From a virus, in the IMG/VR virus record IMGVR_UViG_3300048591_001244, positions 15,205-79,204 of that record: a DNA stretch of 64,000 nt. One strand, given 5' to 3'. The notes beneath the pieces were generated by a model that was given only the letters and a program-made list of their open reading frames with translations, searched no databases and was not told the origin of the DNA. Of this stretch, positions 13,921-52,193 are shown in pieces. Within the stretch, counting starts at the first letter, position 1, and every line of letters begins with the position of its first letter. Both the position numbers and the translations under genes were made by a program.

Positions 13921-15501
13921 TTAATCTGGAATAAAAATATCTCTTCCTTGTTCGTTCTTCAAAATTTTCCCAGGCATTCCATTTACAATAACCGGCGATC
14001 CTTCAGGATAATTTTGTCCTTTAATATAAGGTCTAACCGGTCCGGAATCATTTTGACTTTGATCATAATTGAAGTTGTCATTGACCTTCCAGTGCTTACC
14101 CATTTCAAGAGCCATAGGCTGATCATCTTTTGGTAATGGCTTTCTTATTTTAAACTTGACAACGGTTCCTTTATCTGTTTGGGTAGAAGTGTATTTATCA
14201 GATCCGTCAATATCTCCTAATGACTCCCACAAATTTTCATTGTTCTCTCCATGAATAGTGAAATCTCCACTTCCAGAGAATCCTATCCCTGTATTATCAT
14301 CAATGATACCTGATTCATCTTCTGCAAATTTACGGAATAGATCGCCTTCCATTTCAATATTCCATTCAGTATAAAATTCTCCAAGTTTCTTATCAAAAAG
14401 AATCTTTCCTGTATTGGTAGCTTTAGCACTGCTCAGCAACATAGCTTGTTTGTCAGTAGGAATCTGATGGAAATCTTTTCCTGGATTATCTATTGATTCG
14501 CCTCTGGAAGAAACAATGATACCATCAGACAAATCTACTAATCCATCTGAACTATATGCATTTTTAATTATCTCAGGAGATATTCGAACATATCCTGTTG
14601 GTGATTCCATCGCCCTTTTCAACTGAGTTTGGAACGGATCAAGTAACACACCACCATTTGCTCCACCGCCAGCGCCACCTCTGCCAGTATTAGGGTTGAA
14701 TATCTTAACATCCGAAGGAGCCTGTCCCGGATCTGCAAAGCCTTCACCTGTCTTAACAATATATGTTGCAAGGTCATTTTTGTAAAGCTTCTCTCTAATT
14801 GCAGGATCGAGAGATTGAAACTCTTTTGTGGCTACACGCCTTGCAATAGGATTGGCAAGAACAAGATCCGCTGCAGCTCTCAAATCTTCATTTCTCTGAT
14901 AGGTATATGTCCTCCCATCTTCAGTAGCACCAAGACCTTGAGCTTTGAGATTTTTAAAGATGTCAGCGACAGATTTGCCAAGATCAAATTTGGTATCAGG
15001 ATTTATGAAAGTGTATTTTTTGCGTTCCTGAGCATTGATATCAGTAGTACCAAATGTCCTGTAATTTTCAATTTCATCAAGCATCTCCTGAACATGAGGA
15101 TCATCTTTTGCAGCATCAGGATTTTCATGAAGCCATTTCATTGTAGCATCGTATTCAGTCCGGAAATTCATGTCTTCAGAAACAATGTCATTGTCAACAA
15201 GCTCTTGTTTCATCATTTTAAACTGCAACATCTTTGCAGGATTAAGATGAAGATCATTGTTTTGAAGGACAAACTTACCCATCTCAGTAAGCTTCTGCTT
15301 ATAGAAATCATTGAGTCTTTGACGATTATAGGGACTGCTGACAGAAGCAAGTTTAAAGTCCTCTCCAAGAAGCTTTGCCTTGTTCTCTGCATCTACACGA
15401 GTCTGTCTTTCATATGCGCGCTCTTGTAAATTCCGTTGCATTCTTGCATCGTAATCAACTTTAACATTTGCGCCTTGATATACTCCGATATTTAATGGCA
15501 T
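13921..15501 (-). CDS. Internal (cargo/ejection) virion protein
   Basis: 526 aa, helical N-terminal half, located between the cargo protein and RNAP as in crAss-like gene order. Confidence 0.6.
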   Translation of the reverse strand: MPLNIGVYQGANVKVDYDARMQRNLQERAYERQTRVDAENKAKLLGEDFKLASVSSPYNRQRLNDFYKQKLTEMGKFVLQNNDLHLNPAKMLQFKMMKQELVDNDIVSEDMNFRTEYDATMKWLHENPDAAKDDPHVQEMLDEIENYRTFGTTDINAQERKKYTFINPDTKFDLGKSVADIFKNLKAQGLGATEDGRTYTYQRNEDLRAAADLVLANPIARRVATKEFQSLDPAIREKLYKNDLATYIVKTGEGFADPGQAPSDVKIFNPNTGRGGAGGGANGGVLLDPFQTQLKRAMESPTGYVRISPEIIKNAYSSDGLVDLSDGIIVSSRGESIDNPGKDFHQIPTDKQAMLLSSAKATNTGKILFDKKLGEFYTEWNIEMEGDLFRKFAEDESGIIDDNTGIGFSGSGDFTIHGENNENLWESLGDIDGSDKYTSTQTDKGTVVKFKIRKPLPKDDQPMALEMGKHWKVNDNFNYDQSQNDSGPVRPYIKGQNYPEGSPVIVNGMPGKILKNEQGRDIFIPD

Positions 15502-41474: not shown

Positions 41475-42029
41475 TTAAACCTCAAGGGCTTCAAGCGGAC
41501 GAATCGCTTTCAATCGAACGTCCATCTTGTGCGTCACCGGATTCATTTCAGGGCCGAGAACGATAGTCAGTTCACGTCCTAACAAATCAGCAACCTTGAA
41601 ATTGGCCTCAAGCGGTAAGCCTGTAGCTCCTGCCAAACCTTGAAAGATGCTCAAAGCCTGGTCAGAACGATTCGGCTTCCATCCGTCAGCTTTCTTCTGC
41701 TCAGGTGTGGAATACGGAACTTTCTCACGCAATCCAGTACTGAGATTCAGAGCATAACCGCCTGCATCTATGTACTTTCCTGACTCACGCTCTTTCTCGC
41801 TGAGTTCAGCAAAAAGCCTGTAAGCAAACAGATTGTAATAATGCCTGAACTGACGGCCCTCCTTATCTTTGAAGGTTACCTCTGCCTGTTCGTCCTTGTC
41901 CTTGAAATCGGACTTCTTGTGTTCAGGCACCTTACCTTCAATTCCTGCAATGCGCACATTATGCACACCAGACTCCAGTAGGCCAGACTTAGCTTCACCT
42001 ACGGTAAACACCATTTCATTCAAATTCAT
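41475..42029 (-). CDS. Possible DUF669-like / OB-fold ssDNA-binding protein
   Basis: LLESGVHNVRIAGIEGK start and DLLGRELTIVLG end resemble the DUF669 pattern. Confidence 0.4.
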   Translation of the reverse strand: MNLNEMVFTVGEAKSGLLESGVHNVRIAGIEGKVPEHKKSDFKDKDEQAEVTFKDKEGRQFRHYYNLFAYRLFAELSEKERESGKYIDAGGYALNLSTGLREKVPYSTPEQKKADGWKPNRSDQALSIFQGLAGATGLPLEANFKVADLLGRELTIVLGPEMNPVTHKMDVRLKAIRPLEALEV

Positions 42030-43102
42030 AACAAATAGTTTTAGGGCTGGCTTATCACCAGCGTGTTAATACGAACAAAAGAAAAATTGAATCCCCCTCT
42101 TTAGCACAACCACAACGCTACACCACCATCATACGACAGGACAGGTCTAATAGGCTTTACCGACAGATACGACAGGATCTATAGCGAAAGGACAGGACTA
42201 ATACCATGAACGCAAAAATTCCCCGCCGGGTAGTGAAGCCCAACAGGGAATAGCAAGAAAAGAAAACCATTATCAGGTATCGACCACAATGATACATAAA
42301 AAAAACCATCAGATATACTCCGATGGCTCTTTTGTCCTGTACCCCTACAGGACGTTCATTTACTTCCGAGCTACAAATATAATAACTTCCAATCACCACA
42401 ACAAATTTATTTTACTATCTGCCAATTAGGCACACCTCCATAGCCCATCCTAAAGTGATACATGATACTTACATAATTACTTTATCATTTCTCTGTAACT
42501 CCTTGATTATCAGTAGGTCTTATATTTTTTGTCGACATATATTGTGATTATTGTCTGAAAAGGGTGATTATTTGTTGAGTGGGGTATTATTTGTTTGGGT
42601 TATTGATTTGGGGTATTTCTGGGATTGTTTGTGGATATTTTGTGTTATTGTTGGGAGTACTATACATTCTGGAGGAAAGAGGGGAGGGAGAGGAGGAGCC
42701 GAAATGAAGTTTCGGCCCTTGGCCCAGAGGGAGACTTGACATTCTGTCGGAAGTCGGGTAAGGTATGAGTATGGAGTTGATGGGCGACAGAAGTTTTGAA
42801 CATATCGCTTGTTACCATCATTACAGCCTATTGGTCAGGTGATGAACGAGATGGGTTTTAGTTGGCTGTTGGATACGGCGGGGCCTGCTGGTGGGTCAGG
42901 TTTGTAGGAGGGATCTGGTGTCCGCTACTCAGGTGTGGAGGTAATTAACGGGAGTCCGGTTGGGCTTGGAACAAAGGCAGTAATGAACTGTACCGGGCCG
43001 AATAAAGAGTATATCCTTCACACGAGTTAAACAAATAGGTTCACTATCCTATTTCAGGGAACAAAGTAATGGTGTTGTGGTGAGAAAGTCAAGAGTTTGG
43101 GG

Positions 43103-43118
43103 GAAATAATTTTTCTTT
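43103..43118 (+). promoter_or_regulatory. Phage promoter-like motif GAAATAATTTTTCTTT, copy 2 (rightward)
   Basis: Lies just upstream of the first plus-strand gene; TTGTGGTGAGAAA also shared with copy 1. Confidence 0.6.
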
Positions 43119-43161
43119 CTTTCGTAATCTAATAAGTATTAACCAGATAAAATAAAAAACT

Positions 43162-43608
43162 ATGAAAATTGAGTCCTTTAGTTATGACGAATTGAGAGTT
43201 AACCATGAATTGTTTGATAATAAAATGGGCAAGTCACATGAGATCTTTAATATTGATTCGGAGCGTTATAAGTTGATAACCGATGCTATTTCAGTCCGGG
43301 CTAATAAGATTGTGGATACCCTACAAAAAGCTTCTGATTCAAAATCTGTACAAGAAAAGACAGATCTGCTCAAGCCGTATTTTAATGAACTCACCTTACC
43401 GGTTGTCATGACAGATCACTTACTTAAAAACAGTGAGGTGAAGTATGAGTCTGTAGAAGAGTTCTTTGTTGCTGTCCTATTGTGCGGTCAATTTTTTACT
43501 CAGACCAATCAAACTATGTCCAATAATCCTTCTGTTGCAATAACCATTAATCTAATAAACGTTGAAAACCTTTTGGAGACAAAGAAAGGAGAAGTCAATG
43601 AACAGTAG
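43162..43608 (+). CDS. Hypothetical protein, first gene of the rightward unit
   Basis: 148 aa, A-rich leader. Confidence 0.6.
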   Translation: MKIESFSYDELRVNHELFDNKMGKSHEIFNIDSERYKLITDAISVRANKIVDTLQKASDSKSVQEKTDLLKPYFNELTLPVVMTDHLLKNSEVKYESVEEFFVAVLLCGQFFTQTNQTMSNNPSVAITINLINVENLLETKKGEVNEQ

Positions 43609-43944
43609 AGAATTGAAAGTACAATCAAAGTATGTCCATGAGGTCCGGCCGGTGTATATCAAGGAGGCAACGAGATCTTTCAGCTATACCACCATACTAC
43701 CGGATCCATTTCCGGTGTGCAGGTAGATATCAGGATGGTCCTTGCCCTGGCATTATCATGTGGTGCATATGCAATGATTCTTACCCATAATCACCCATCC
43801 GGAAGGACATACCCTTCGGAAAGTGACAAAGAGATCACTAAGCAATTTGCCGATGCTGCAAAATTACACGATATCAAGATCCTCGATCATATTATCGTCT
43901 CACAAGAAAGCTATTATTCCTTCGCTGATGAAGGAGAGCTGTAA
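43598..43944 (+). pseudogene. radC: RadC-like JAB/MPN domain gene with internal deletion and frameshift
   Basis: C-terminal frame has HNHPSG..PS.SD and LDHIIV..YYSFADEG; the N-terminal ATG 43598 frame (VHEVRPVY) stops at 43726; the frames join out of phase near 43667. Confidence 0.75.
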
Positions 43945-43963
43945 ACCTTAAAATCAAAATGCT

Positions 43964-44188
43964 ATGACCAAACAAGAACAAATGAAAAGAATTCTGGTTT
44001 TTATTCGATTTCATACTGATATGCAGAATTTAGACAGAATAAGCCATATTGATTTAGATAGACTCGTTGCTTTCATCTTGCAATCGCTATATAATGAAAA
44101 TCCAGCATTGGCTGTATCTGCTTCTGAAGAATTGAATTTTACCAGAACAAAGAAAACCTATGTTAACAATCTAAATCGACGATCATGA
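43964..44188 (+). CDS. Hypothetical protein
   Basis: 74 aa ORF. Confidence 0.5.
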   Translation: MTKQEQMKRILVFIRFHTDMQNLDRISHIDLDRLVAFILQSLYNENPALAVSASEELNFTRTKKTYVNNLNRRS

Positions 44189-44436
44189 CAAAAATTAATC
44201 AAGAACTAATACATACCCTCTCAGCTTCAGAAGCTCAGGAAGGTATTGTTGAAATTGAAAAACTAATGGCTAAGCATCAAGAGGTCTGCTCTCGTATCAG
44301 TACTGATATGGAGCCGGAAGAACTGTTCTACCTACGAATAGAAGCTGCCATGACTGAAAGAGAGCTGCTTGTGGCTAAGAAAAAGATGAGACAACAAATG
44401 AAACGCAAACAAGTTCTCGGGGAGGTGTCATGTTAG
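44185..44436 (+). CDS. Hypothetical coiled-coil protein
   Basis: 83 aa, ATGA overlap with the previous gene. Confidence 0.55.
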   Translation: MTKINQELIHTLSASEAQEGIVEIEKLMAKHQEVCSRISTDMEPEELFYLRIEAAMTERELLVAKKKMRQQMKRKQVLGEVSC

Positions 44437-44523
44437 ATATCCAACAATCACCGCAGAAACGAAAAGCGAGGAAGCAATTATAGGATTAAAACTGCAAGAC
44501 AGAAAAAATGCAAAGTACGTGCC

Positions 44524-44640
44524 GCAGCTAAACGCTGTTGGCGATTTGAAATACGAAATTATCAATCTAAAAATAAAGTAACAATGGAAAACGAAAATTT
44601 GAATACATCAGAAGCCGCCAATAGCGATTTAGGTGCTGTT
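44524..44640 (+). repeat. attC-like hairpin H1 (AAC box degenerate, GTAC)
   Basis: Arms 44524-44543 GCAGCTAAACGCTGTTGGCG / 44616-44636 CGCCAATAGCGATTTAGGTGC, then T-GTT. Confidence 0.7.
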
Positions 44641-44874
44641 AGTGGCAGTAGGGATTCTCAGGAAGATTGGTATGATGATGAATATTACGAGGGACAGCCG
44701 CACGAGGATTGCCCTAAATGTGGTAGAAGCTATGACCATATTGATTTTGATTACCAAAGCTGCTCTAAATGCGGCTGGGATGCTGAAAATGAAAAATGGA
44801 CAGAAGCCCGTGAGCCATCTGATGATGATTATTTAAATGGGGGTGCGGACATTCTTACTGGAAGGTGGTATTAG
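44584..44874 (+). CDS. Cassette 1 cargo: acidic zinc-ribbon protein (CxxC...CxxC); start codon lies in the H1 loop
   Basis: Only Met is at 44584; reads through GTTAGTGGCAGT = VSGS; stop abuts the 3' IR. Confidence 0.7.
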   Translation: MENENLNTSEAANSDLGAVSGSRDSQEDWYDDEYYEGQPHEDCPKCGRSYDHIDFDYQSCSKCGWDAENEKWTEAREPSDDDYLNGGADILTGRWY

Positions 44875-44880
44875 TATTGC

Positions 44881-45012
44881 CACTAACGTGTTTGCGCTTG
44901 GCGCAGTGGCGGATTTCGGAGCGAAAAACTTTCAAACCACCACTAAAGCTGATGCGAGGCACAATGTTGAATTAACCACTAAAACCGCCATTGAGCCAAA
45001 CGCATGTTATGC
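44881..45012 (+). repeat. attC-like hairpin H2
   Basis: CACTAAC-N5-arm 44893-44912 / arm 44985-45004-T-GTTATGC. Confidence 0.8.
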
Positions 45013-45146
45013 TCTCGTTGCGGTTCATTAAGCAGAACTTTCAATCGAAGCAAGGTGTTTTTAATCTTTTTTTGTGCGGTGGTCAAAAAAATATCAACAT
45101 TGAAAATCAGCACTTTAGAGATAATAATACAAATAAGTGAAAAATA

Positions 45147-45190
45147 TTTGTAAAAATGCTTGGTGGTTACAAATAAGCGGCTTATATTTG
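45147..45190 (+). promoter_or_regulatory. Bacteroidota sigma70-type promoter inside cassette 2
   Basis: TATATTTG (TAnnTTTG, -7 box) at 45183-45190 with TTG/TTTG upstream. Confidence 0.55.
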
Positions 45191-45221
45191 TACTGTCATT
45201 AACAATCAAAATAACAAGAAA

Positions 45222-45647
45222 ATGAAAAATTTAATCAAAAACACAATCATCAGACAAGCAATCGAATTAGGTTTTGACTTTGAACAATTCACTAACGATG
45301 CAGATTTGCAAGAAGTAAGCGAAGCACTTATGGACTTCTTTAACGAAAATTCAGACAAGTTGCCAAAACTTGAAGATGCGTGCGAAGTAACAAGCAACGG
45401 AAGAACACAACACGTAAGCTATGGCGATTTTTGGTCTGATGGAGAGATAGTTAATTTTTCAGACAACTGGCACAAATCACCTGAAACAAAAGTTTTTCAC
45501 TCTGATTTTGTAATGGAAGATACTGACGGATTGATGAAAAATATGAACTTGTATTATTTAGTTGGCGAAACTGATTACAACGCACCTGACGGCTACTATT
45601 ACAGCAAAAGCGAAAAAAGACACGTAAAAGAAGAAGAAAATGCGTAA
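45222..45647 (+). CDS. Cassette 2 cargo, hypothetical protein
   Basis: 141 aa, A-rich leader, follows a promoter. Confidence 0.65.
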   Translation: MKNLIKNTIIRQAIELGFDFEQFTNDADLQEVSEALMDFFNENSDKLPKLEDACEVTSNGRTQHVSYGDFWSDGEIVNFSDNWHKSPETKVFHSDFVMEDTDGLMKNMNLYYLVGETDYNAPDGYYYSKSEKRHVKEEENA

Positions 45648-45855
45648 GATTTTTCACTTAGAAATCAAATCGGAAAGCTCCCATAAATACTACGGGAGCT
45701 TATCCGCTTTATGCTCTGAAAACCCAAATTTGGGTATTTCAAAATTCACACTTGACAGATTTGATTTTACAGAACCTTTTGAAAATGCAACTTGCATTAT
45801 CCGAAAATCAGTAATGAAAACTACTGGAAGCGTGGGAGAAAAAGTTAAATGGTAA
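45640..45855 (+). CDS. Cassette 2 cargo, small putative DNA-binding protein
   Basis: 71 aa, YYGSLSAL...LGISKFTL; overlaps the previous stop. Confidence 0.55.
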   Translation: MRKIFHLEIKSESSHKYYGSLSALCSENPNLGISKFTLDRFDFTEPFENATCIIRKSVMKTTGSVGEKVKW

Positions 45856-45962
45856 ATTAGAGAACAACACGAATTTAATTATTAAGTAAAAAACGCTCAC
45901 TTTAGCAGTACGCCCCTGCTTTTGTATAGCGTATGTTATAGGGCGTTTTTAATTTAATCAAA

Positions 45963-46157
45963 ATGAGAACAGTAGAAGTGACAGTAACTTACAAGTATGA
46001 GCTTGAAATTGACGACAACAACGAGATTGTCAAAGAGTATGAAAGCGAAAACGAATTATTGGTGGATTGTGCCACTTATCGTTTCTCAACAGGATTACCT
46101 GTAATTGGTGATGGTGGGGTAAAAGTTAAGGATGTCGAATTGGTCGAGGTTTCTTAA
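45963..46157 (+). CDS. Cassette 3 cargo, hypothetical protein
   Basis: 64 aa bounded by IRs 45935-45948 / 46156-46169. Confidence 0.65.
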   Translation: MRTVEVTVTYKYELEIDDNNEIVKEYESENELLVDCATYRFSTGLPVIGDGGVKVKDVELVEVS

Positions 46158-46162
46158 ATGCC

Positions 46163-46293
46163 CTATAACGTAAAAGTATAAAAGCAGGTGGGGATTGAAC
46201 GGCAAACACGTTTCGACTTGCACAAAACTAAATAAACAGCCGAGGTGGTTAAAAATAGCACATAACCCCACTTGATTTTATACAGTGTTGTGT
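46163..46293 (+). repeat. attC-like hairpin H4
   Basis: CTATAAC-N6-arm 46176-46193 / arm 46266-46283-AGT-GTTGTGT. Confidence 0.8.
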
Positions 46294-46306
46294 GCAGTTA
46301 TTTATT

Positions 46307-46627
46307 ATGTTTAAATTACATTATGCAAGTTTAGATTTAGGGAATAATGATATTCCTTGTTTTGAGTTCAAAAAACATTCTCAAATGGTTGATTTTATTG
46401 ATGAAAAATGTATCAATAGAAATGGAAAAGTTGTTTGGCTTTTGGCTAAAGAAGATTTTACAGATGTTTTTATTTCTGAAAATCATTTAAGTATTCAGGA
46501 TTTTTTAAGTAAAAAAGATTGCTGGCAAACAACTGGTAATTATTTTCTTCAAGAATATACAAGTTTTGAAGATGCTTATCGTGTCGCATTAGATATGTCA
46601 GAAATTAGTCCGCTGTGTTATTCATAA
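46307..46627 (+). CDS. Cassette 4 cargo, hypothetical protein
   Basis: ATG 46307; stop lies within the 3' IR 46624-46638. Confidence 0.65.
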   Translation: MFKLHYASLDLGNNDIPCFEFKKHSQMVDFIDEKCINRNGKVVWLLAKEDFTDVFISENHLSIQDFLSKKDCWQTTGNYFLQEYTSFEDAYRVALDMSEISPLCYS

Positions 46628-46641
46628 TTGCACACAACATC

Positions 46642-46914
46642 ATGAACAACTATCGCTCAATTGACAAAAAAACACCTGAAGTTGTTGACAATACAACAAA
46701 TGATACATATCCTAAAACCCTATACATTCGAAATGAAGTGGGAGGAATGGTGTGGCAAGTATATCATGTTAATAACATAACAGAAGCTCTCAATCTCGTT
46801 AAAAATGCTGTTAAAAATGGATTTTATGGCAACCATACATTAGAAGACCATACAAATGAAACAGAAACATGGCCTGATTGGAGAAAAACAGCACATCCAG
46901 ACATCTTTAAATAA
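46642..46914 (+). CDS. Hypothetical protein
   Basis: ATG 46642 in frame with track ORF 46615-46914. Confidence 0.55.
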   Translation: MNNYRSIDKKTPEVVDNTTNDTYPKTLYIRNEVGGMVWQVYHVNNITEALNLVKNAVKNGFYGNHTLEDHTNETETWPDWRKTAHPDIFK

Positions 46915-46922
46915 CATAAACC

Positions 46923-47291
46923 ATGAAAATAAAAGACATACTAAAGAAATACCTTCCTTATCACATAGTAAAAGAAATAACAGAAGCTATGAAATCACAG
47001 GGAAGAGGACACGAGCTAAATCGCTTTAATTATGCGGTAAAATCACCACATTCAATAATAGGGCTTTCATTTGAATGGGCTATAAAAAACTACTTGAATA
47101 AAAATGACATCTATAAAGATGATAGTGACTTTCAGGATATCATTATTAATTCTTTCTATAATCAACACAATGAAGAAGAAGGTCGGCTAGATGTAAATGA
47201 CAATCCCTGGAAAGACAAATTAGATTATGTACATAATCACTTCGAATTATTCTGTCAGTATGCACAAAATAACTGGAGAAAGATTAAATAA
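46923..47291 (+). CDS. Hypothetical protein
   Basis: 122 aa ORF. Confidence 0.55.
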   Translation: MKIKDILKKYLPYHIVKEITEAMKSQGRGHELNRFNYAVKSPHSIIGLSFEWAIKNYLNKNDIYKDDSDFQDIIINSFYNQHNEEEGRLDVNDNPWKDKLDYVHNHFELFCQYAQNNWRKIK

Positions 47292-47360
47292 AATAAATTT
47301 CATCCCTCGCATCTTGGTCGGTGCGGGGGATTTATAGACGGATGGAAAACTGAAAGTAAC

Positions 47361-47756
47361 ATGATAACAGAGACAAAAGAAATATATAAGTGCGACCATT
47401 GTAAAAAGATGTACCAAAGAAAGTCGGCTTGCATGAGGCACGAAGATGTTTGTTTTAAAAGCCCTGATTTTTTAAGACCATGCCATAGTTGCGTGAATCT
47501 TGAAAAGAGAACCACAACCGTATTTAGCGGACGTAGTGATGAAAACGGCAATGAATATGAAATGACCGTAAACCTTATGTTCTGTAAAAAAAGAGACTGC
47601 TTCATTCATCCACATAAAGTAGCGGTAAAGGGAAATGCTTTCGAGACTGGAGATAAAGAAAATATTGAAATGCCAAAAGAGTGTGAATTTTATGAAAATG
47701 AATATGCGTATGTGTTAAAAGACAATCTAACCCCAACCCATGAAAACCACCCCTGA
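47361..47756 (+). CDS. Cys-rich zinc-binding protein
   Basis: YKCDHCKK...CMRHE..C, CHSC and further Cys. Confidence 0.65.
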   Translation: MITETKEIYKCDHCKKMYQRKSACMRHEDVCFKSPDFLRPCHSCVNLEKRTTTVFSGRSDENGNEYEMTVNLMFCKKRDCFIHPHKVAVKGNAFETGDKENIEMPKECEFYENEYAYVLKDNLTPTHENHP

Positions 47757-48201
47757 CTACTTCAACGAAATAAAATGCCCGATTGTTAGGCGCAGGGCGA
47801 TAAGGAATTGCGATGAACCTGAAAAACAAGAGAGTAGTCTAAAATGGGCAATTCATGGAGGCTTCGTCTGGAGAGAAACTCCTGAAGGTGTTGCATACTG
47901 GAGTGAGGTTTACGAAAACCCACTCGCCCCATCCCCAGAACATCTACTACCTGATGGGTACAGGGAGGAGGCCGAGCCAAACTTGACGTTAGCAGCAGTA
48001 ACGGATTTAAAAATGGAACATTCAAAACAAGAAAAAGAAATTTACGAATTAGCAGAACTTTTGATGCAGTCTGAAAACTTAGAAGCAAGTGCAACTATCC
48101 TTCGTGATTTTGCTGAAAAATGTTACCAAGAAGGTGCAATAGATGCTCAAAATGATGCGGCAAAAGAAATACGTGAACACTATGTAGAAGGTGGTCGGTA
48201 G
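47740..48201 (+). CDS. In-frame fusion of a resident gene (FxWxxTPEG..YW motif) with cassette 5 cargo
   Basis: Cassette IR starts at 47988 inside the ORF; cassette's own ATG at 48013 is in frame. Confidence 0.6.
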   Translation: MKTTPDYFNEIKCPIVRRRAIRNCDEPEKQESSLKWAIHGGFVWRETPEGVAYWSEVYENPLAPSPEHLLPDGYREEAEPNLTLAAVTDLKMEHSKQEKEIYELAELLMQSENLEASATILRDFAEKCYQEGAIDAQNDAAKEIREHYVEGGR

Positions 48202-48208
48202 TTATTGC

Positions 48209-48342
48209 TGCTAACGCCCAAGCAGCTTTGCGTTCGGTGGCGTTTTTAAACCGAACGCTTCACTTAATAACAAAATTTGATATGGAAAAAAATGTAACAA
48301 CCAACACCTACCCACAGCATGACGCAAAACTGCCTGTTAGCG
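48209..48342 (+). repeat. attC-like hairpin H5
   Basis: GCTAAC-N6-GCAGCTTTGCGT (48222-48233) / ACGCAAAACTGC (48322-48333)-CT-GTTAGCG. Confidence 0.7.
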
Positions 48343-48497
48343 GTAGTTATTATTGGTATTGTCGATTCACTTTCAAAGGAGATAAATGTGATTTATACCT
48401 TACAGAAAGAAACAACTGCAAAACATTTAAGGAACTTCGTAGATGGTGGAGAAAAGAGAAACCAAACTTAAAACTTCTGTCAGCGGTCAGGAAATAA
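48282..48497 (+). CDS. Cassette 6 cargo; start codon lies in the H5 loop
   Basis: MEKNVTTNTYPQHDAKLP-VSGS-YYWY...; no other Met; stop lies within the 3' IR. Confidence 0.65.
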   Translation: MEKNVTTNTYPQHDAKLPVSGSYYWYCRFTFKGDKCDLYLTERNNCKTFKELRRWWRKEKPNLKLLSAVRK

Positions 48498-48501
48498 TTT
48501 C

Positions 48502-48653
48502 CGCTAACAAGCTGGTATGTGCTGTGCCAGCCACAAAATTAATAATCACGGCACTAACTTAACAGGCATAGCATATACCGTTTTCGGGCTTGGCGTTCGG
48601 TTTTGTGCGTAGGGCTTGTGGGTGGCAAAACTGACGCAAAACCCGTGTTATAT
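48502..48653 (+). repeat. Two fused attC-like hairpins H6a and H6b with no cassette between them
   Basis: Arms 48514-48528/48565-48579 and 48585-48605/48626-48645. Confidence 0.7.
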
Positions 48654-48743
48654 GAAGGTGGGATTTTCACGCACTACACTCGATTAGAAGCACGTAAAAA
48701 GAAAAAGAAAAAATGAGCGTGGGAAACAATTAAATCATTTAAA

Positions 48744-49241
48744 ATGCAAAAGAACATTTTATTATTTGACGTAGAAAGCACAAGTTTACACGGAACAGGA
48801 TTTGCCGTTGGTGCTATTGTAGTAAACAGAGGCGGAACAGAACTTGACCGATTTGAACTATTAAGCAAGGAGGGGGCTGAAAAAGCAAATGGTTGGGTTA
48901 AACAAAATGTAATACCTAATCTTTCTGATATGCCGACTTGCGAAACAGACAAAGAGCTTCGGGATGCTTTTTTCAACTTCTACGTAAAGCACAAAGAAAC
49001 GGCAGAAATTTGGAGCGATGTAAATTTTCCAGTTGAAACAAACTTTTTACACGCTATTGTAAATGATGCTCCGACAGAAAGAGAATGGTCAATGCCATAT
49101 CCCTTGTTTGATGCTTCAACATTAGTAGATGTAAGCATTGACCGATGTGCAGAATGTGGAATTGATGGATTGAGAAAGCACAACCCACTTGATGACAGCC
49201 GTGCAAGTGTTTACTTTCTTTTGAAATCATTGGGTCACTAA
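48744..49241 (+). CDS. Cassette 7 cargo: DEDDh-type 3'-5' exonuclease-like protein
   Basis: LLFDVEST (ExoI) and KHNPLDDS (ExoIII-h) motifs. Confidence 0.75.
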   Translation: MQKNILLFDVESTSLHGTGFAVGAIVVNRGGTELDRFELLSKEGAEKANGWVKQNVIPNLSDMPTCETDKELRDAFFNFYVKHKETAEIWSDVNFPVETNFLHAIVNDAPTEREWSMPYPLFDASTLVDVSIDRCAECGIDGLRKHNPLDDSRASVYFLLKSLGH

Positions 49242-49388
49242 ATCATTTGAGCGTGGGCAGATTTTTTCTTTTTCTTTTTCCCGAAAGTTCAATCGAAGCA
49301 CTCCTGCCCACTTTCATATAACAATATATATCCGCATCTGCAAAATAAAACTACCGAATAATATTACTAACGATTAATATCCAGACCC

Positions 49389-49751
49389 ATGAAAACAATA
49401 ATTAAAGACTTGACGGGTGAGATGCCTGTGCAAGATATTGATGAGAAGCTCGGAATCATCTTGATGAAACACTACAAAGGTAATGATTACATAACAGATG
49501 ATGCAGTCAACGACATCCTTGCCCTCTTCGCCGACAAGCCAAAAGGTAAGCCGATTGAGTTTGTGTGGTTTATTTCTTGTGATGGAGAAGAACTAAAGCC
49601 AACAATAAAACCATCAGATTTCTCTGAAATTAATTTAATTTATAAAGACTACCACGGGTATGATATTTTCATTACATTCGATAAAAATGGATGCAAATAC
49701 CAATATCACGGCCACTGGAACGATGGCTATGTTGAAGGGAATGATAACTGA
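49389..49751 (+). CDS. Hypothetical protein
   Basis: 120 aa ORF. Confidence 0.55.
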   Translation: MKTIIKDLTGEMPVQDIDEKLGIILMKHYKGNDYITDDAVNDILALFADKPKGKPIEFVWFISCDGEELKPTIKPSDFSEINLIYKDYHGYDIFITFDKNGCKYQYHGHWNDGYVEGNDN

Positions 49752-49765
49752 TAAAAACTAAGAAG

Positions 49766-49966
49766 ATGAGCAAGAAAAAAACTGAAAAAAAATACCTATT
49801 GTACGATGGAAGGTACAGGACTGATGAAGATAAGGCGGTTTGTTACGAAATGTGTGACTCTTTGAAGGAGGCTAATGAAAACAAAGATGATTATGGAACA
49901 GACACTGTTATTGTTGAATGTGAAGTGTCTGGAAACAATTTAATTAATTCTAAAACTATAAACTAA
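49766..49966 (+). CDS. Hypothetical protein
   Basis: 66 aa ORF. Confidence 0.55.
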   Translation: MSKKKTEKKYLLYDGRYRTDEDKAVCYEMCDSLKEANENKDDYGTDTVIVECEVSGNNLINSKTIN

Positions 49967-49978
49967 CACCCCAACAAC

Positions 49979-50569
49979 ATGACACCCGAAGCACTTGTCT
50001 TTGACTTAGACACAATACTGGCAAACCTTGAATCATCTTTACATGGTCACACAGGCGATCAAGTAAGCGAAGCAAGAAACCTACTCGATCAACTTGAAAA
50101 GAAAATTATATCAGACCGAGACACCCACGCCCGACAGATGGCTGTGGAGTTTTGCATTCACAAAGATACTGACGGAAAAAGAACATCGGAGAATGATTAT
50201 AAACGAGCCTTTGACACCTATTCAGCGTATGATAAATGGTTCGACACCTTCACCGCAACTAATAACAACCCAAAAACCCCAACAATCATGAGCAAAGAAA
50301 TCGAATTTAGAGACTTAACAAGCGTAGAGGACGCAGGAGCGTTTGCAGTAGGTTTATCAGAGCACCTGTCAGCACAACAACAAGGATTCTTTGTAGCGGG
50401 ATTTCAGGAGTGCTACAAGTATCTCATCGCATCAACTGACAGGAAGGAGGACAAGTCGTGTCCGATTTGCAATGGAATGGGGTGGCATTTTACAGATGAG
50501 TGGATTGGACAATTACAAGAAAGAAGAAAGTGCCAGTGTGCATCTAACCCAAAGGAGGACAAGGGATGA
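49979..50569 (+). CDS. Mosaic hypothetical protein with C-terminal DnaJ-like CxxCxGxG module
   Basis: Internal leader-like NNNPKTPTI-M segment; KEDK repeated around CPICNGMG...CQC. Confidence 0.55.
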   Translation: MTPEALVFDLDTILANLESSLHGHTGDQVSEARNLLDQLEKKIISDRDTHARQMAVEFCIHKDTDGKRTSENDYKRAFDTYSAYDKWFDTFTATNNNPKTPTIMSKEIEFRDLTSVEDAGAFAVGLSEHLSAQQQGFFVAGFQECYKYLIASTDRKEDKSCPICNGMGWHFTDEWIGQLQERRKCQCASNPKEDKG

Positions 50570-50644
50570 TTTGCTACAAAGACATAACCTTCTGAATGCA
50601 GGGATGAGGTGAGTAAGGGGATTGAGGACTTAAAATAAAGGACT

Positions 50645-50911
50645 ATGCCACGAATGAAAAATACAACAGGCGAAAATGTAGAAGATGTGACTATTAAATA
50701 TAGTTGGATTTCTATTCCAAAGGATTTTGAAAACATAGAGGACACTTCAAAAACGGATGACTTCTTAGTGAATCCGAGGGTAGCCGAATACATTGAGTTC
50801 TTAGAGCTACAAAGAGATAAGGAAACGCTGACCGTCATTAGTCACATGACATCTTTAAATGACGCTCACTTGCAACACAAGGTACTTAACACCACCCCAC
50901 CAAACAACTAA
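50645..50911 (+). CDS. Hypothetical protein
   Basis: 88 aa ORF. Confidence 0.45.
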   Translation: MPRMKNTTGENVEDVTIKYSWISIPKDFENIEDTSKTDDFLVNPRVAEYIEFLELQRDKETLTVISHMTSLNDAHLQHKVLNTTPPNN

Positions 50912-50923
50912 ACAACTGATAAG

Positions 50924-51169
50924 ATGAAAGCATATAAGATAAAACTGGCACGAGAAAAGCTGACTAGTCGAAAGTTTCTTGAAAAAAGATTATTGAAAAT
51001 AGCCTACAAGCTACTGTACTTGGAAAACTTTGAGAAGTTTGAGTGTAGTAGTTTTTTCAAAGGTGAATTACTCGCAGAACTGAATTTCAAAACATACCTA
51101 TCTGAAAAGAAGAAATGGGAAAGATTGGCAGACCGAACAAAAGAGCTATTAGCACGAGTTGTTGACTAA
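50924..51169 (+). CDS. Basic hypothetical protein
   Basis: 81 aa ORF. Confidence 0.5.
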   Translation: MKAYKIKLAREKLTSRKFLEKRLLKIAYKLLYLENFEKFECSSFFKGELLAELNFKTYLSEKKKWERLADRTKELLARVVD

Positions 51170-51200
51170 CCCCCCCCCATCGGCATTGACCGATGATTAA

Positions 51201-51521
51201 ATGAAGGATATGAAAATAAACTGGATCACACCAAAAGAAATACTAGAGCTTGAAAAAGAGCTAGGCTTCACACTTGAAGCAAACGAACGAGCAGAAAGAT
51301 TACGCGGATTGAAAAGATTCTACGTTTTATTTAAGGACGGTCATGCAATGGAGTCAAGTTGCTTGGTTGGCTACTCGGGCAACGGCGACACCGTTGATGA
51401 AGCCCTAAAAGATTACTGCAATCACATTTCGGGAAAGCGAATGGCGTTCAATGCTTATTCACAAAACAGAACCGAAGTACAGTTGCCTAGACTTGTTCAC
51501 ACTAAACTATTAGGATACTAA
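51201..51521 (+). CDS. Hypothetical protein
   Basis: 106 aa, GNGDTVDEALKDY motif. Confidence 0.55.
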   Translation: MKDMKINWITPKEILELEKELGFTLEANERAERLRGLKRFYVLFKDGHAMESSCLVGYSGNGDTVDEALKDYCNHISGKRMAFNAYSQNRTEVQLPRLVHTKLLGY

Positions 51522-51580
51522 CCATGACACGCCACCCCGACAAGCTGATTAAATGAACCAAACACTAACAACCAAAAACT

Positions 51581-51943
51581 ATGACAACATTAATTATTCT
51601 AATTGTGATTATTGCAGTAGGCGTGAAACTTCTTAATAGCTGGGACTTTGGCATGCTCGGAGGTCTTATGGCTGTGTTCGGCTCAATATTATTGCTGATT
51701 CATCTTCTATGCTGGGGTTTTGTATCCTACTACGACTACAACCAATTCAAAACGCAGCGCAACGCTTTTGAACAAACACTAAAGAGTGCAAGAGCTAACG
51801 GCAACCAATACGAAACGGCAGCAATTGTAAAAGAAGTTGCCGAGTGGAATATTAAACTAGCATCAAAGAAGTACGACAATACGATTTGGGTTTTTGGCCA
51901 ATACATTGATGATCGAATAGACTCACTTAATCCAATACGATAG
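51581..51943 (+). CDS. Membrane protein (2 N-terminal TM helices)
   Basis: Two hydrophobic segments followed by a soluble domain. Confidence 0.65.
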   Translation: MTTLIILIVIIAVGVKLLNSWDFGMLGGLMAVFGSILLLIHLLCWGFVSYYDYNQFKTQRNAFEQTLKSARANGNQYETAAIVKEVAEWNIKLASKKYDNTIWVFGQYIDDRIDSLNPIR

Positions 51944-51947
51944 AATC

Positions 51948-52193
51948 ATGAAAAAAATCAAACTACTGATAAAATGTTTTTTGCTATTTATGTTGGTAGT
52001 TATCATCTTCTGGAGCTTTAAAGTCATAGCTCAGGAGCCGGATACCACTCTCTACCATCGCATGAACCCAGATACAATTATTGTTGCGGTATTCCCTAAA
52101 GCATTGTTCGACTCTGTCCAAAGAGGATACAAAGGACCGGAAGGATATTGTCCACCGAAAAGCGTAAGATATTATCGGATACTAAAGAAATAA
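51948..52193 (+). CDS. Small secreted or membrane-anchored protein
   Basis: Basic N-terminus followed by a hydrophobic helix. Confidence 0.5.
   Translation: MKKIKLLIKCFLLFMLVVIIFWSFKVIAQEPDTTLYHRMNPDTIIVAVFPKALFDSVQRGYKGPEGYCPPKSVRYYRILKK

Follow-up and report, generated by a model that had tools for sequence, protein, structure and literature searches.

The window analysed here is a stretch of 64,000 nucleotides (positions 15,205 to 79,204 of the IMG/VR virus record IMGVR_UViG_3300048591_001244). Its segment 44514-49322 displays small genes enclosed by inverted repeats that begin with GTT and end with AAC, separated by hairpin sites. The features of this segment are given below; scores refer to R1, a covariance model derived from sequences related to the second spacer (E1), arm values are complementary positions out of 14, and ^ marks a junction.

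44514..44642, +, first hairpin site E0 (R1 34.9 bits, E 1.3e-6); its 5' box is GTAC, not TAAC, its GTT lies at 44638-44640, its DNA fold has a long-range stem (z -2.4), and a 462-kb uncultured phage shares 80% identity with it over 44524-44603
44584..44874, +, cargo ORF of C1 (96 aa, weak zinc-ribbon hints), with its ATG inside E0, 54 nt upstream of GTT
44638..44887, +, body of cassette C1 (arms 44638-44651 and 44874-44887, 12/14, G opposite T at position 11); one metagenome contig terminates at 44888
44883..45010, +, E1, 124 nt from AAC to GTT (R1 137 bits), member of a near-invariant Bacteroidota subfamily; Flavobacterium phages 6H, 2A and FPSV share 71% identity with it from CTAAC^G onward, and it is solitary on a wastewater contig as exactly 44883-45010
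45006..45934, +, C2 region (5' arm 45006-45019, ORFs 45222-45647 and 45640-45855), ending in a spacer that survives only as a 3' remnant (~45895-45937), which pairs with the 5' arm of E3; in one metagenome contig 250 other letters replace ORF 45222-45647
45935..46169, +, cassette C3 (arms 13/14; ORF 45963-46157, 64 aa); six contigs of metagenome run X2 break at 45934/5, other metagenome contigs keep both arms around different cargo, and the arm pair recurs in a bacterial locus (L040)
46165..46291, +, E3 (R1 25.1 bits, E 3e-4), with an interrupted 18-bp stem
46287..46638, +, cassette C4 (arms 13/14; ORF 46307-46627, 106 aa), its terminal AAC having no element behind it; metagenome contigs retain the arms around other cargo, and the match to a 5.3-kb contig of metagenome run X1 begins at 46636
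46639..47987, +, element-free block of four ORFs (46642-46914, 46923-47291, 47361-47756 and 47740 onward), with no R1 match and no family assignment for its ORFs except weak PHROG matches
47974..47990, +, remnant of a site 3' arm (GAGCCAAAC...GTT, compared with the family 3' arm), inside ORF 47740-48201, which matches PHROGs over residues 1-59 only
47988..48215, +, cassette C5 (arms 13/14; ORF 48013-48201, 62 aa); pieces of wastewater contigs begin exactly at 47988 and end at 48216
48211..48340, +, E5 (R1 37.1 bits, E 4e-7), holding the ATG (48282) of the C6 ORF
48336..48508, +, body of cassette C6 (arms 12/14); its ORF (48282-48497, 71 aa) starts 54 nt upstream of the body, within E5
48504..48651, +, E6, 144 nt from AAC to GTT, matched by R1 over 48575-48651 only (23.5 bits, E 8e-4); a metagenome contig joins 48216 to 48587, with C6 absent
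48647..49322, +, last cassette C7 (arms 13/14; ORF 48744-49241, 165 aa), with backbone after its AAC

The initial annotation of this DNA had listed six GTT...AAC pairs (44638/44887, 45935/46169, 46287/46638, 47988/48215, 48336/48508 and 48647/49322), all of which are present. When 14-nt arms are anchored on the GTT and the AAC, 12 to 13 positions are complementary in each pair, a G at position 11 of the 5' arm opposite a T is the sole or main mismatch in 6/6, and, as had been described, five of the six cassettes (C1, C3, C4, C5 and C6, from sequence and ORFs) have a stop codon that adjoins the 3' arm or overlaps it. Chance matches in AT-rich phage DNA are one rival explanation, and the window indeed has an imperfect 13-14-nt inverted repeat every 1.6 kb or so; this explanation is, however, already refuted by the shuffle and cross-genome comparisons. 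The shuffled control proposed in the annotation (500 dinucleotide-preserving shuffles of 44000-50000) gave a mean of 0.35 anchored pairs and a maximum of 4, none of the 500 reaching the six observed, and the four weaker anchored pairs in the remaining 58 kb of the window correspond to the chance level. Chance is equally at odds with the identical mismatch position in all six pairs, and with the own-end rule being also valid in 104 cassettes elsewhere.

The inter-cassette spacers are one structural family of ~124 nt with an AAC-hairpin-GTT layout. They had been characterized as imperfect hairpins of ~70-130 nt and of unrelated sequence; the hairpins stand, the lengths from AAC to GTT are more uniform than described (125, 124, 123, 126 and 144 nt), and the sequences are not unrelated, since the single model R1 matches five of them (E0, E1, E3, E5 and E6, E 1.7e-31 to 8e-4, all on the + strand). 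A further, weaker R1 match (47983-48126, E 0.019) was read as spurious, and neither 40000-64000 nor the complete 79-kb genome gave any other match with E below 1. In 68 distinct sites from phages and bacteria, whose alignment had been fitted to the model, 95.4% of the cells of the 22 hairpin pairs are paired (shuffles 70.5%, slid controls 22-47%); compensatory changes occur in 18 of these pairs, and two G.U positions hardly ever change. The thermodynamic z-scores of single window sites are modest (-0.6 to -2.4).

Across the 104 cassettes, the two arms of one cassette match at 7.95 of 11 positions on average; the corresponding averages are 4.23 for the two flanks of one site and 3.91 for random pairs. 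At least 9 matching positions are reached by 55%, 1.4% and 0.4% of them, respectively, which bears out the proposal that the ends match their own cassette and not the neighbour. Arm pairs also recur with different cargo, which is unexplained by a simple picture of one cassette with one history. Natural junctions are found at the AAC box: the Flavobacterium phages 6H and FPSV-D15 carry blocks of 99-100% identity in different orders, with sharp ends mostly at YTAAC^G, and two IMG/VR loci (L022 and L024) have in common an identical 1357-nt unit running from ACTAACG to ...TATAAC^, a behaviour also displayed by a second pair (L015 and L025). The exchange point thus maps to the AAC side, (T)AAC^, and not to G^TT as originally suggested, so that a phage hairpin moves together with its downstream gene. 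Neither circular cassettes nor clean excision joints were seen among the metagenome contigs, which are contigs and not reads.

These junctions could also be read without any site-specific enzyme, the 124-nt spacers serving as portable homology for general or phage homologous recombination and the arms being by-products. Spacers of one subfamily are more than 90% identical across genomes, and several HSP ends between 6H and D15 lie inside similar spacers and not at their edge. Breakpoints unrelated to the sites occur as well, at 45232/45638 in a metagenome contig and inside a 300-aa gene of 6H, and since these lie away from AAC/GTT, ordinary recombination also shapes the array regions. As the main explanation it is nevertheless unlikely, as it leaves unexplained the complementary cassette ends with their fixed G.T, the covariation of the hairpin, the constancy of the strand, and the presence of a recombinase at the head of the array; moreover, the partners at TAAC^G junctions share only ~5-15 nt. 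A comparable case are the promoter/stem-loop (PeSL) cassettes of the hyperplastic regions of T4-type phages, reportedly described by Arbiol and co-workers in 2010 with homologous recombination at promoter/terminator sequences as the proposed mechanism. There too, small accessory phage genes lie between conserved regulatory or structured intergenic modules and are shuffled among phages, but we know of no AAC/GTT boxes, own-end complementarity or linked tyrosine recombinase in PeSL cassettes.

The same site family forms arrays in Flavobacterium phages, in many IMG/VR phages and in the genomes of several Bacteroidota orders, extending beyond Bacteroidales to Flavobacteriales, Cytophagales, Chitinophagales, Sphingobacteriales and Saprospiraceae. 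The array start adjoins a co-directional Xer-like tyrosine recombinase in all three bacterial genomes checked, and such a recombinase is located inside 15 of 98 bacterial loci of at most 8 kb. Among 25 IMG/VR loci found by recombinase alignment, seven have sites, which share the strand of the recombinase; in at least six of these loci the sites lie within ~2 kb upstream of the recombinase (e.g. L177 and L172, with recombinases of 269-275 aa, PF13495+PF00589). The search for co-occurring recombinases suggested in the initial annotation therefore yields the tyrosine (Xer-like) type, at the array head in bacteria and, in a short form, beside arrays in some large phages. Array-linked recombinases match the integron-integrase model only below the cut-off, in two pieces between which the IntI-specific insert is missing.

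The strand bearing the G.T pairs is the sense strand in phages (20/20 clear cases) and the antisense strand in bacteria (58/60); the folding strand carries the cargo of phages, whereas bacterial cargo is on the other strand. This argues that the elements act as DNA rather than RNA. It is therefore improbable that phage early transcripts use the hairpins and gene-enclosing arms as RNA elements (processing, stability or termination), with mosaic junctions resulting merely from conserved sequence. In phages, the strand that pairs well (G.U allowed) is the transcribed one, the arms bracket single ORFs whose stop codon touches the 3' arm in 5/6 cassettes, and some members have an ORF start within the element, all as such a role would predict; in bacteria, however, mRNA would carry C.A mismatches, and the linkage to a tyrosine recombinase in both bacteria and phages, the junctions that join elements of different subfamilies at a 5-nt AAC box, without long homology, and the lack of any matching Rfam family also speak against it. 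The elements may still have a secondary RNA role in phages.

It is very unlikely that the 124-nt elements are non-autonomous transposable hairpins (MITE, REP or IS200/IS605-like) inserting at TAAC/GTTA between genes. They are short, palindromic, of high copy number, bounded by fixed tetranucleotides and solitary on some contigs, as such hairpins would be; but the phage is without a Y1-HUH transposase, and the copies are not dispersed, forming a strand-consistent tandem array at one locus (genomes G001 and G002) or a few (G003) with a tyrosine recombinase at its head. Insertion of an element cannot create complementary arms one gene apart, and the moving units include cargo.

Bacteroidota and their phages thus seem to run an integron-like gene-shuffling system, which standard integron searches have not reported; IntegronFinder surveys have reported almost no integrons in Bacteroidetes. 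With integrons and sedentary chromosomal integrons (IntI, attI and attC; the VCR array of Vibrio cholerae) it shares tandem co-oriented cassettes, imperfect hairpin sites bounded by 5'-AAC...GTT-3', conserved unpaired or wobble features that favour folding of one strand, a crossover at the AAC/GTT box with the first bases of the cassette complementing its own 3' box, and arrays that are sometimes very large, with toxin-antitoxin and defence cargo (integron features after PMC9024848 and established knowledge). It differs in that its recombinase, which runs in the same direction as the array (divergent in integrons), is without the IntI-specific insert, in that the sites are nearly fixed at ~124 nt with a 14-bp own-end stem (a 7-bp R box in integrons), and in that the cargo of phages of the present family lies on the folding strand. 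The integron likeness proposed initially holds for the cassette logic and not for a classical integron, the bacterial arrays having the layout of rAID-1 (10.1101/471110).

The rAID-1 loci are recombinase-associated acquired interbacterial defence clusters of Bacteroidales, published as a XerD-like tyrosine recombinase at the 5' end of co-directional short genes with repetitive intergenic sequences "reminiscent of integrons" (Ross et al. 2019, 10.1101/471110; PMC12247911). Compared by layout, the bacterial relatives of the window sites match this definition. Of 61 genomes sampled from the order to which a Bacteroidales MAG belongs, 36 have R1 sites, similar to the published 226/423 (same sources). 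That work deals with gut Bacteroidales chromosomes and immunity genes, and the texts used here describe no site structure, crossover point or phage link; here we find a recombinase-less phage of virulent type, ORFan cargo, reversed cargo strand and a wider range of orders. Integrons can no longer be regarded as essentially absent from phages, as CALINs and integrons, with sites found by classical attC models, have been reported in phage genomes (Qi et al. 2023, PMC9892861). Those CALINs resemble the present arrays as attC-type site clusters without integrase in virulent phages, including one of a Flavobacteriia host, and Flavobacterium or crAss phages are not mentioned (PMC9892861). Since classical attC models were used there and Polaribacter phage P12002L of that study has no site of the present family, the present arrays are a different site family.

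The core of the initial reading, integron-like cassettes on folded sites served by an outside recombinase, is supported by the hairpin covariation, the own-end complementarity of the 104 cassettes, the AAC junctions and the recombinase family. A complete cassette (+ strand) consists of a ~124-nt hairpin site from (T)AAC^G to GTT, a 5' arm starting from that GTT, and a cargo gene with a 3' arm ending in AAC. The arms of one cassette, complementary over ~14 nt with the fixed G.T, would lengthen the hairpin stem in the excised circle; the strand with the conserved G.T pairs would fold as single-stranded DNA, by analogy with integron attC, and a Xer-like tyrosine recombinase would catalyse strand exchange at the 5' AAC box. 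The complete 79-kb record encodes no tyrosine, serine or Y1-HUH recombinase, so that any cassette movement in this phage must rely on a recombinase acting in trans, from the array of its host or from a co-infecting phage. Of the two sources envisaged initially, elsewhere in the genome or the host, the former is thus contradicted, and outside supply has comparative support.

The two 3' spacer remnants and the element-free block 46639-47987 make the region look like two partly decayed arrays and not one clean array. We put at roughly 0.7 the probability that 44514-49322 is one or two partly decayed, recombinase-less cassette arrays of this Bacteroidota/phage integron-like system. The array may be active today; it may also be a fossil, given its two remnant sites, the 5' arm of C2 (45006-45019), for which no partner was found in the window, and 1.3 kb without sites. 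Among the loci fetched, no other array was found to encode any of the window cargo proteins; they are shared only with metagenome contigs, which do not give their genomic context. The label "crAss-like" given to this phage is only distantly true, its TerL being 22-26% identical to Crassvirales. The C7 ORF, without Pfam or PDB match, is RNase H/DEDD-like by PHROG only (PHROG 2259, E 5e-5), and C7 holds a second, perfect inverted repeat of 19 nt (48696-48714 and 49261-49279).

The array (44514-49322, plus strand) is composed of cassettes, C1 to C7, each consisting of a 5' arm that begins with GTT, a cargo ORF and a 3' arm that ends with AAC (C2 being incomplete), and of hairpin sites that lie between them. 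All six GTT...AAC inverted-repeat pairs reported in the initial annotation were found at the positions it gave. When 14-nt arms anchored on GTT and AAC were required to be complementary at 12 or more of the 14 positions, six pairs were counted in the 44000-50000 region of the window, more than in any of 500 dinucleotide shuffles (mean 0.35, maximum 4), and the other 58 kb of the window holds four, which is chance level. Position 11 carries a G in the 5' arm opposite a T in the 3' arm in all six pairs, and the stop codon touches the 3' arm in five of the six cassettes, as had been noted. The observation is confirmed, and its interpretation as an integron-like cassette system is supported with corrections.

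The source record of 79,204 bp has direct terminal repeats and is rated complete in IMG/VR. Its minus strand encodes a 4509-aa ORF together with the capsid, portal and terminase genes, and its plus strand carries, from ~42 kb, small early genes and replication genes. TerL matched Crassvirales only, at 22-26% identity; the description of this phage as crAss-like is therefore true only in a distant sense. A conserved 390-aa protein found no relatives in IMG/VR and only distant actinophage matches in the phage collection, the major capsid protein had no tblastn match, and no tRNA or tmRNA was found.

The spacer behind C1 (44883-45010) is 71% identical to a sequence of the temperate, unrelated Flavobacterium psychrophilum phages 6H, 2A and FPSV, with a homology that starts exactly between the C and the G of CTAACG and stops near TGTTA. 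A 19-nt pattern from the 5' arm of this site identified ~14 true members among 22 IMG/VR matches and, in bacteria, at least 89 near-invariant copies among the 120 matches listed, the bacterial matches belonging to the Flavobacteriales, Cytophagales, Chitinophagales, Sphingobacteriales, Saprospiraceae and Bacteroidales. The site measures 124 nt from AAC to GTT in nearly all members, and an alignment of 18 diverse members displays a TAACG/TGTTA closing helix, a 4-nt 5' bulge, a long interrupted stem and compensatory changes. The covariance model of these sites (R1), run unfiltered over 40000-64000, gave the following matches:

44514-44642, plus strand: hairpin site E0, at the edge of the array
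44883-45010, plus strand: hairpin site E1, behind cassette C1
46165-46291, plus strand: hairpin site
48211-48340, plus strand: hairpin site
48575-48651, plus strand: hairpin site

Elsewhere in this interval R1 found nothing at E<1 apart from 47983-48126 (E 0.019), where only a 3' arm remnant remains and which was read as spurious; across the whole phage genome its matches are confined to this array. Among 68 distinct sites, 95.4% of the pair cells are paired, versus 70.5% after shuffling and 22-47% for slid controls, in an alignment fitted to the R1 model, which favours the structure. Double changes occur at 18 of the 22 stem pairs, and two G.U positions are almost never replaced. Rfam, searched at E values up to 10 with window positions 42000-52000 and one bacterial array, returned sub-threshold noise only and no such family. 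A cluster of ORFs in 21 loci had suggested a 41-aa minus-strand peptide encoded by the 124-nt element; the idea was dropped, since in diverged subfamilies the stem pairs and the length are retained and the interior sequence is not. The interior of E0 (44524-44603) is 80% identical to the 462-kb uncultured phage record LR756500.1, another unrelated phage with this site family, and Polaribacter phage P12002L has no R1-family site.

The rule by which cassette ends pair was examined in 104 cassettes bounded by two R1 matches (75 bacterial, 29 viral), using 11 positions beyond GTT/AAC. The two ends of one cassette match at a mean of 7.95 of the 11 positions (9 or more in 55%), against 4.23 for the two flanks of one site (1.4% reach 9) and 3.91 for random end pairs (0.4% reach 9); the claim that each 5' end pairs with the 3' end of its own cassette, and not with that of its neighbour, holds across this set. 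The position-11 mismatch (G opposite T), at times with an extra T, recurs across these cassettes. Such own-end complementarity is the signature expected if there is a circular intermediate: a cassette would pass through a circle in which its two arms flank the site and lengthen the stem.

Comparison of related loci located the exchange points. Phages 6H and FPSV-D15 share blocks of 99-100% identity that differ in order and have sharp ends, mostly between the C and the G of YTAACG. Two of the fetched loci (L022 and L024) share an identical 1357-nt unit running from ACTAACG to TATAAC, past which backbone follows in one contig and a different site in the other, and the pair L015/L025 behaves in the same way. 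Identical units ending directly after (T)AAC show that the moving unit comprises the site, the 5' arm, the cargo and the 3' arm, as read on the G.T-bearing strand, which is the presumed folding strand. The crossover would lie in the 5' AAC box of that strand; in integron attC sites, the folded bottom strand is cut at the corresponding AAC-box position. We also considered that the hairpins might lend a start codon to foreign cassettes, an ATG being present inside the site in C1 and C6, and rejected this because the junction mapping has the site and the downstream gene travelling as one unit.

The orientation of the cargo follows a strand rule: it is opposite to the G.T-bearing strand in 58 of 60 clear bacterial cases and on it in all 20 clear phage cases. 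A common RNA role of the sites in bacteria and phages is therefore unlikely. Since phage cargo lies on the G.T-bearing strand, the site precedes the gene, and the ORFs of C1, C6, 6H gp47 and others start inside it, 42-54 nt before GTT; a fusion need not be invoked. In the deposited annotation of FPSV-D15 (L004:8310-9212) and 6H (L001:2552-3403), a ~290-aa CDS begins before or inside the 124-nt site and reads through it; translation may in fact start at an in-frame ATG just past the 5' arm.

Parts of the window's array were found in other contexts on wastewater and activated-sludge contigs from four studies, the sequencing runs being represented by assembled contigs in which only the covered parts of the array were read. 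C5 is present on a contig from exactly 47988 to 48216, E1 is present alone on a contig, the GTT of C3 is where several contigs break off, and in some contigs the arms of C3, C4 or C7 enclose different cargo. Arm pairs are thus matched types that turn up repeatedly, and two of the window's types are also found in a bacterial array and in 6H. The ends of C7, which are kept around other cargo in a metagenome contig, show imperfect complementarity over ~77 nt overall, and contain (48679-49300) an inner perfect 19-nt purine/pyrimidine inverted repeat (48696-48714 / 49261-49279), both copies of which are adjoined by TGAGCGTGGG.

Same-strand arrays of R1 sites at a spacing of 300-1000 nt are carried by 6H, FPSV-D15, many IMG/VR contigs (one of 270 kb) and also by bacterial loci, and R1 sites are present in 36 of 61 sampled genomes of the order Bacteroidales. 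On the complete Bacteroidota chromosome CP058707 (reached through bacterial locus L040), at least 147 scored R1 sites lie on one strand between 3.48 and 3.98 Mb, and the array, if continuous, would occupy more than one tenth of the genome. The run of sites (3,480,326-3,986,832 in that genome, ~500 kb of 4.27 Mb, with 1410 first-look candidates) has a Xer-like recombinase at its end (3985828-3986832). In the two bacterial arrays sampled for cargo, most genes are ORFans, accompanied by GmrSD_N and ParE.

In all three bacterial genomes examined, a Xer-like tyrosine recombinase (PF13495+PF00589) is located directly upstream of the array and is co-directional with its genes; the array recombinase is also present in 15 of 98 short bacterial loci. 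The array-heading recombinases align with TIGR02249 in two pieces (profile positions 4-177 and 240-315), skipping the IntI insert, and score 181-193 bits versus a cut-off of 265; their best model is XerA-type, likewise below cut-off, and they fall under every curated cut-off. In one of the three genomes (G003), a 194-nt spacer (L155:1295-1487) separates the stop of the recombinase from the first cassette, which begins at GTTAGCGG directly after gaga; the spacer contains two direct copies and one inverted copy of aaaacgggtacacat and, by analogy with attI, is a candidate docking site. No attI-like counterpart could be assigned in the window after 49322.

A single-protein search found no phage recombinase. 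Searching with an alignment of the array recombinases gave 25 IMG/VR loci, and in seven of these a 269-275-aa recombinase shares its strand with R1 sites. These seven loci are on contigs of 71 to 208 kb, and in at least six of them sites lie within ~2 kb upstream of the recombinase; the enzyme family is therefore tied to these sites in phages too. Two arrays, L177:4360-8600 (208-kb IMG/VR contig) and L172:6582-12412 (76-kb contig), have their own recombinase (PF13495+PF00589; 269 and 275 aa, respectively), which is encoded on the strand of the sites and cargo and has no counterpart of the ~90-aa N-terminal extension of the bacterial enzymes. On the 270-kb contig, an open 61-aa fragment (L018:1702-1884) directly follows a three-site array and shows 51% identity to the C-terminal, catalytic end of the array recombinase (LRHS...GH...IYTHV); it looks like a decayed recombinase gene. 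The initial annotation had proposed a recombinase encoded elsewhere in the genome or by the host, and had suggested a search for co-occurring tyrosine or HUH recombinases. A co-occurring tyrosine recombinase was found, a Xer-like enzyme adjoining related arrays in bacteria and in some phages, but the genomic source falls away: neither a homologue of the array enzyme nor any recombinase of the tyrosine, serine or Y1-HUH type is encoded in the complete genome of this phage. Here the enzyme would be supplied in trans.

Classical integrons have attI and Pc beside a divergent intI, and their integrase has an IntI-specific insert in the catalytic domain, whereas the array recombinases of the relatives are co-directional and lack this insert, and the phage has no such enzyme. 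Classical attC sites are imperfect hairpins bounded by AAC...GTT that recombine as folded single strands. The hairpin layout is seen in the present site family, together with covariation; its sites are longer and more uniform than classical attC, and their use as single strands is a prediction. The cassettes display the classical crossover, after the G of GTT and before the C of AAC, with the first bases pairing with the cassette's own 3' box. With five R1 sites and no recombinase, the window fits the idea of a CALIN (in IntegronFinder, at least two attC within 4 kb and no integrase). Integrons were said in the initial annotation to be essentially absent from phages; both integrons and CALINs have already been reported there by a screen that used IntegronFinder and names no Flavobacterium or crAss phage (PMC9892861). 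Surveys with IntegronFinder detected almost no integrons in Bacteroidetes.

The bacterial arrays resemble, in their layout, the published rAID-1 clusters of Bacteroidales. The rAID-1 description speaks of 'repetitive intergenic sequences reminiscent of integrons', defines an intergenic repeat motif, requires at least 44% identity of the recombinase to BF9343_RS08045 and describes cargo enriched in orphan immunity genes (10.1101/471110). The XerD-like recombinase at the 5' end of rAID-1 is present in the bacterial relatives and absent in the phage. The window does have at least two short genes that run in one direction and are accompanied by conserved, repetitive intergenic DNA, as in rAID-1, and would be at most a recombinase-less derivative of it. 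IS200/IS605- or REP-type elements combine a Y1-HUH transposase with dispersed copies, whereas here there is no PF01797 and the copies are in one array. Our literature search retrieved no paper linking rAID-type arrays to phages or describing the site.

We give a probability of about one half to the reading that Bacteroidota phages keep a cassette pool of their own which mirrors the host system and is common to unrelated lineages, from temperate Flavobacterium siphoviruses and phages of 70-350 kb to the present, distantly crAss-like one. Such a pool would use the same folded sites, with both the cargo and, in large phages, a short 270-aa Xer-like recombinase placed on the folding strand; it would constitute a phage 'integron' for the shuffling of early accessory genes, in which phages without a recombinase depend on enzymes in trans. 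Recombination at these sites and their folding as single-stranded DNA are predicted by analogy, and present activity of the array is putative. Integrons are the textbook case of gene capture via folded DNA sites and are generally described as all but missing from Bacteroidota and uncommon in phages. The data point to a parallel, phylum-wide system with a simpler Xer-like enzyme, whose sites extend over ~500 kb in one chromosome and which reaches virulent as well as temperate phages, where it would explain the gene-by-gene assembly of hypervariable early-gene regions. The rAID-1 arrays, which are little understood, gain a specific site structure and a specific crossover point, both open to testing, and compact new pairs of hairpin and recombinase become available to researchers. 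Phage cargo keeps to the reversed strand with a regularity that is puzzling and has a bearing on the strand exposed during phage replication.

The cargo of the window has no family assignments beyond weak matches (no PDB or Pfam match for C7), and neither its 18 local proteins nor any of the 150 ORFs of the genome had homologues in the fetched array loci, with the exception of two helicases and the frame running through E1. In E0 the TAAC box reads GTAC, the state expected of a site that borders an array; two of the window's sites are remnants, one 5' arm is without a partner, and 46639-47987 is site-free. Non-site DNA lies directly behind the AAC of C4, at which a metagenome contig also breaks, and behind the AAC of C7. 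We read the region as two short, partly decayed arrays. A single 153-aa frame (47740-48201) begins in a resident gene, with PHROG matches at residues 1-59 only, crosses what is left of a site and then the C5 5' arm, and continues in frame with the C5 ORF, whose own ATG is at 48013; it may be a fusion made by site decay. Between 45084 and 45222, a Bacteroidota-type promoter-like motif (TTTG ... TAtaTTTG) was recognized by eye before the gene at 45222. A metagenome contig carries 250 other letters in place of this gene (45233-45637), and the breakpoints are off any AAC/GTT box.
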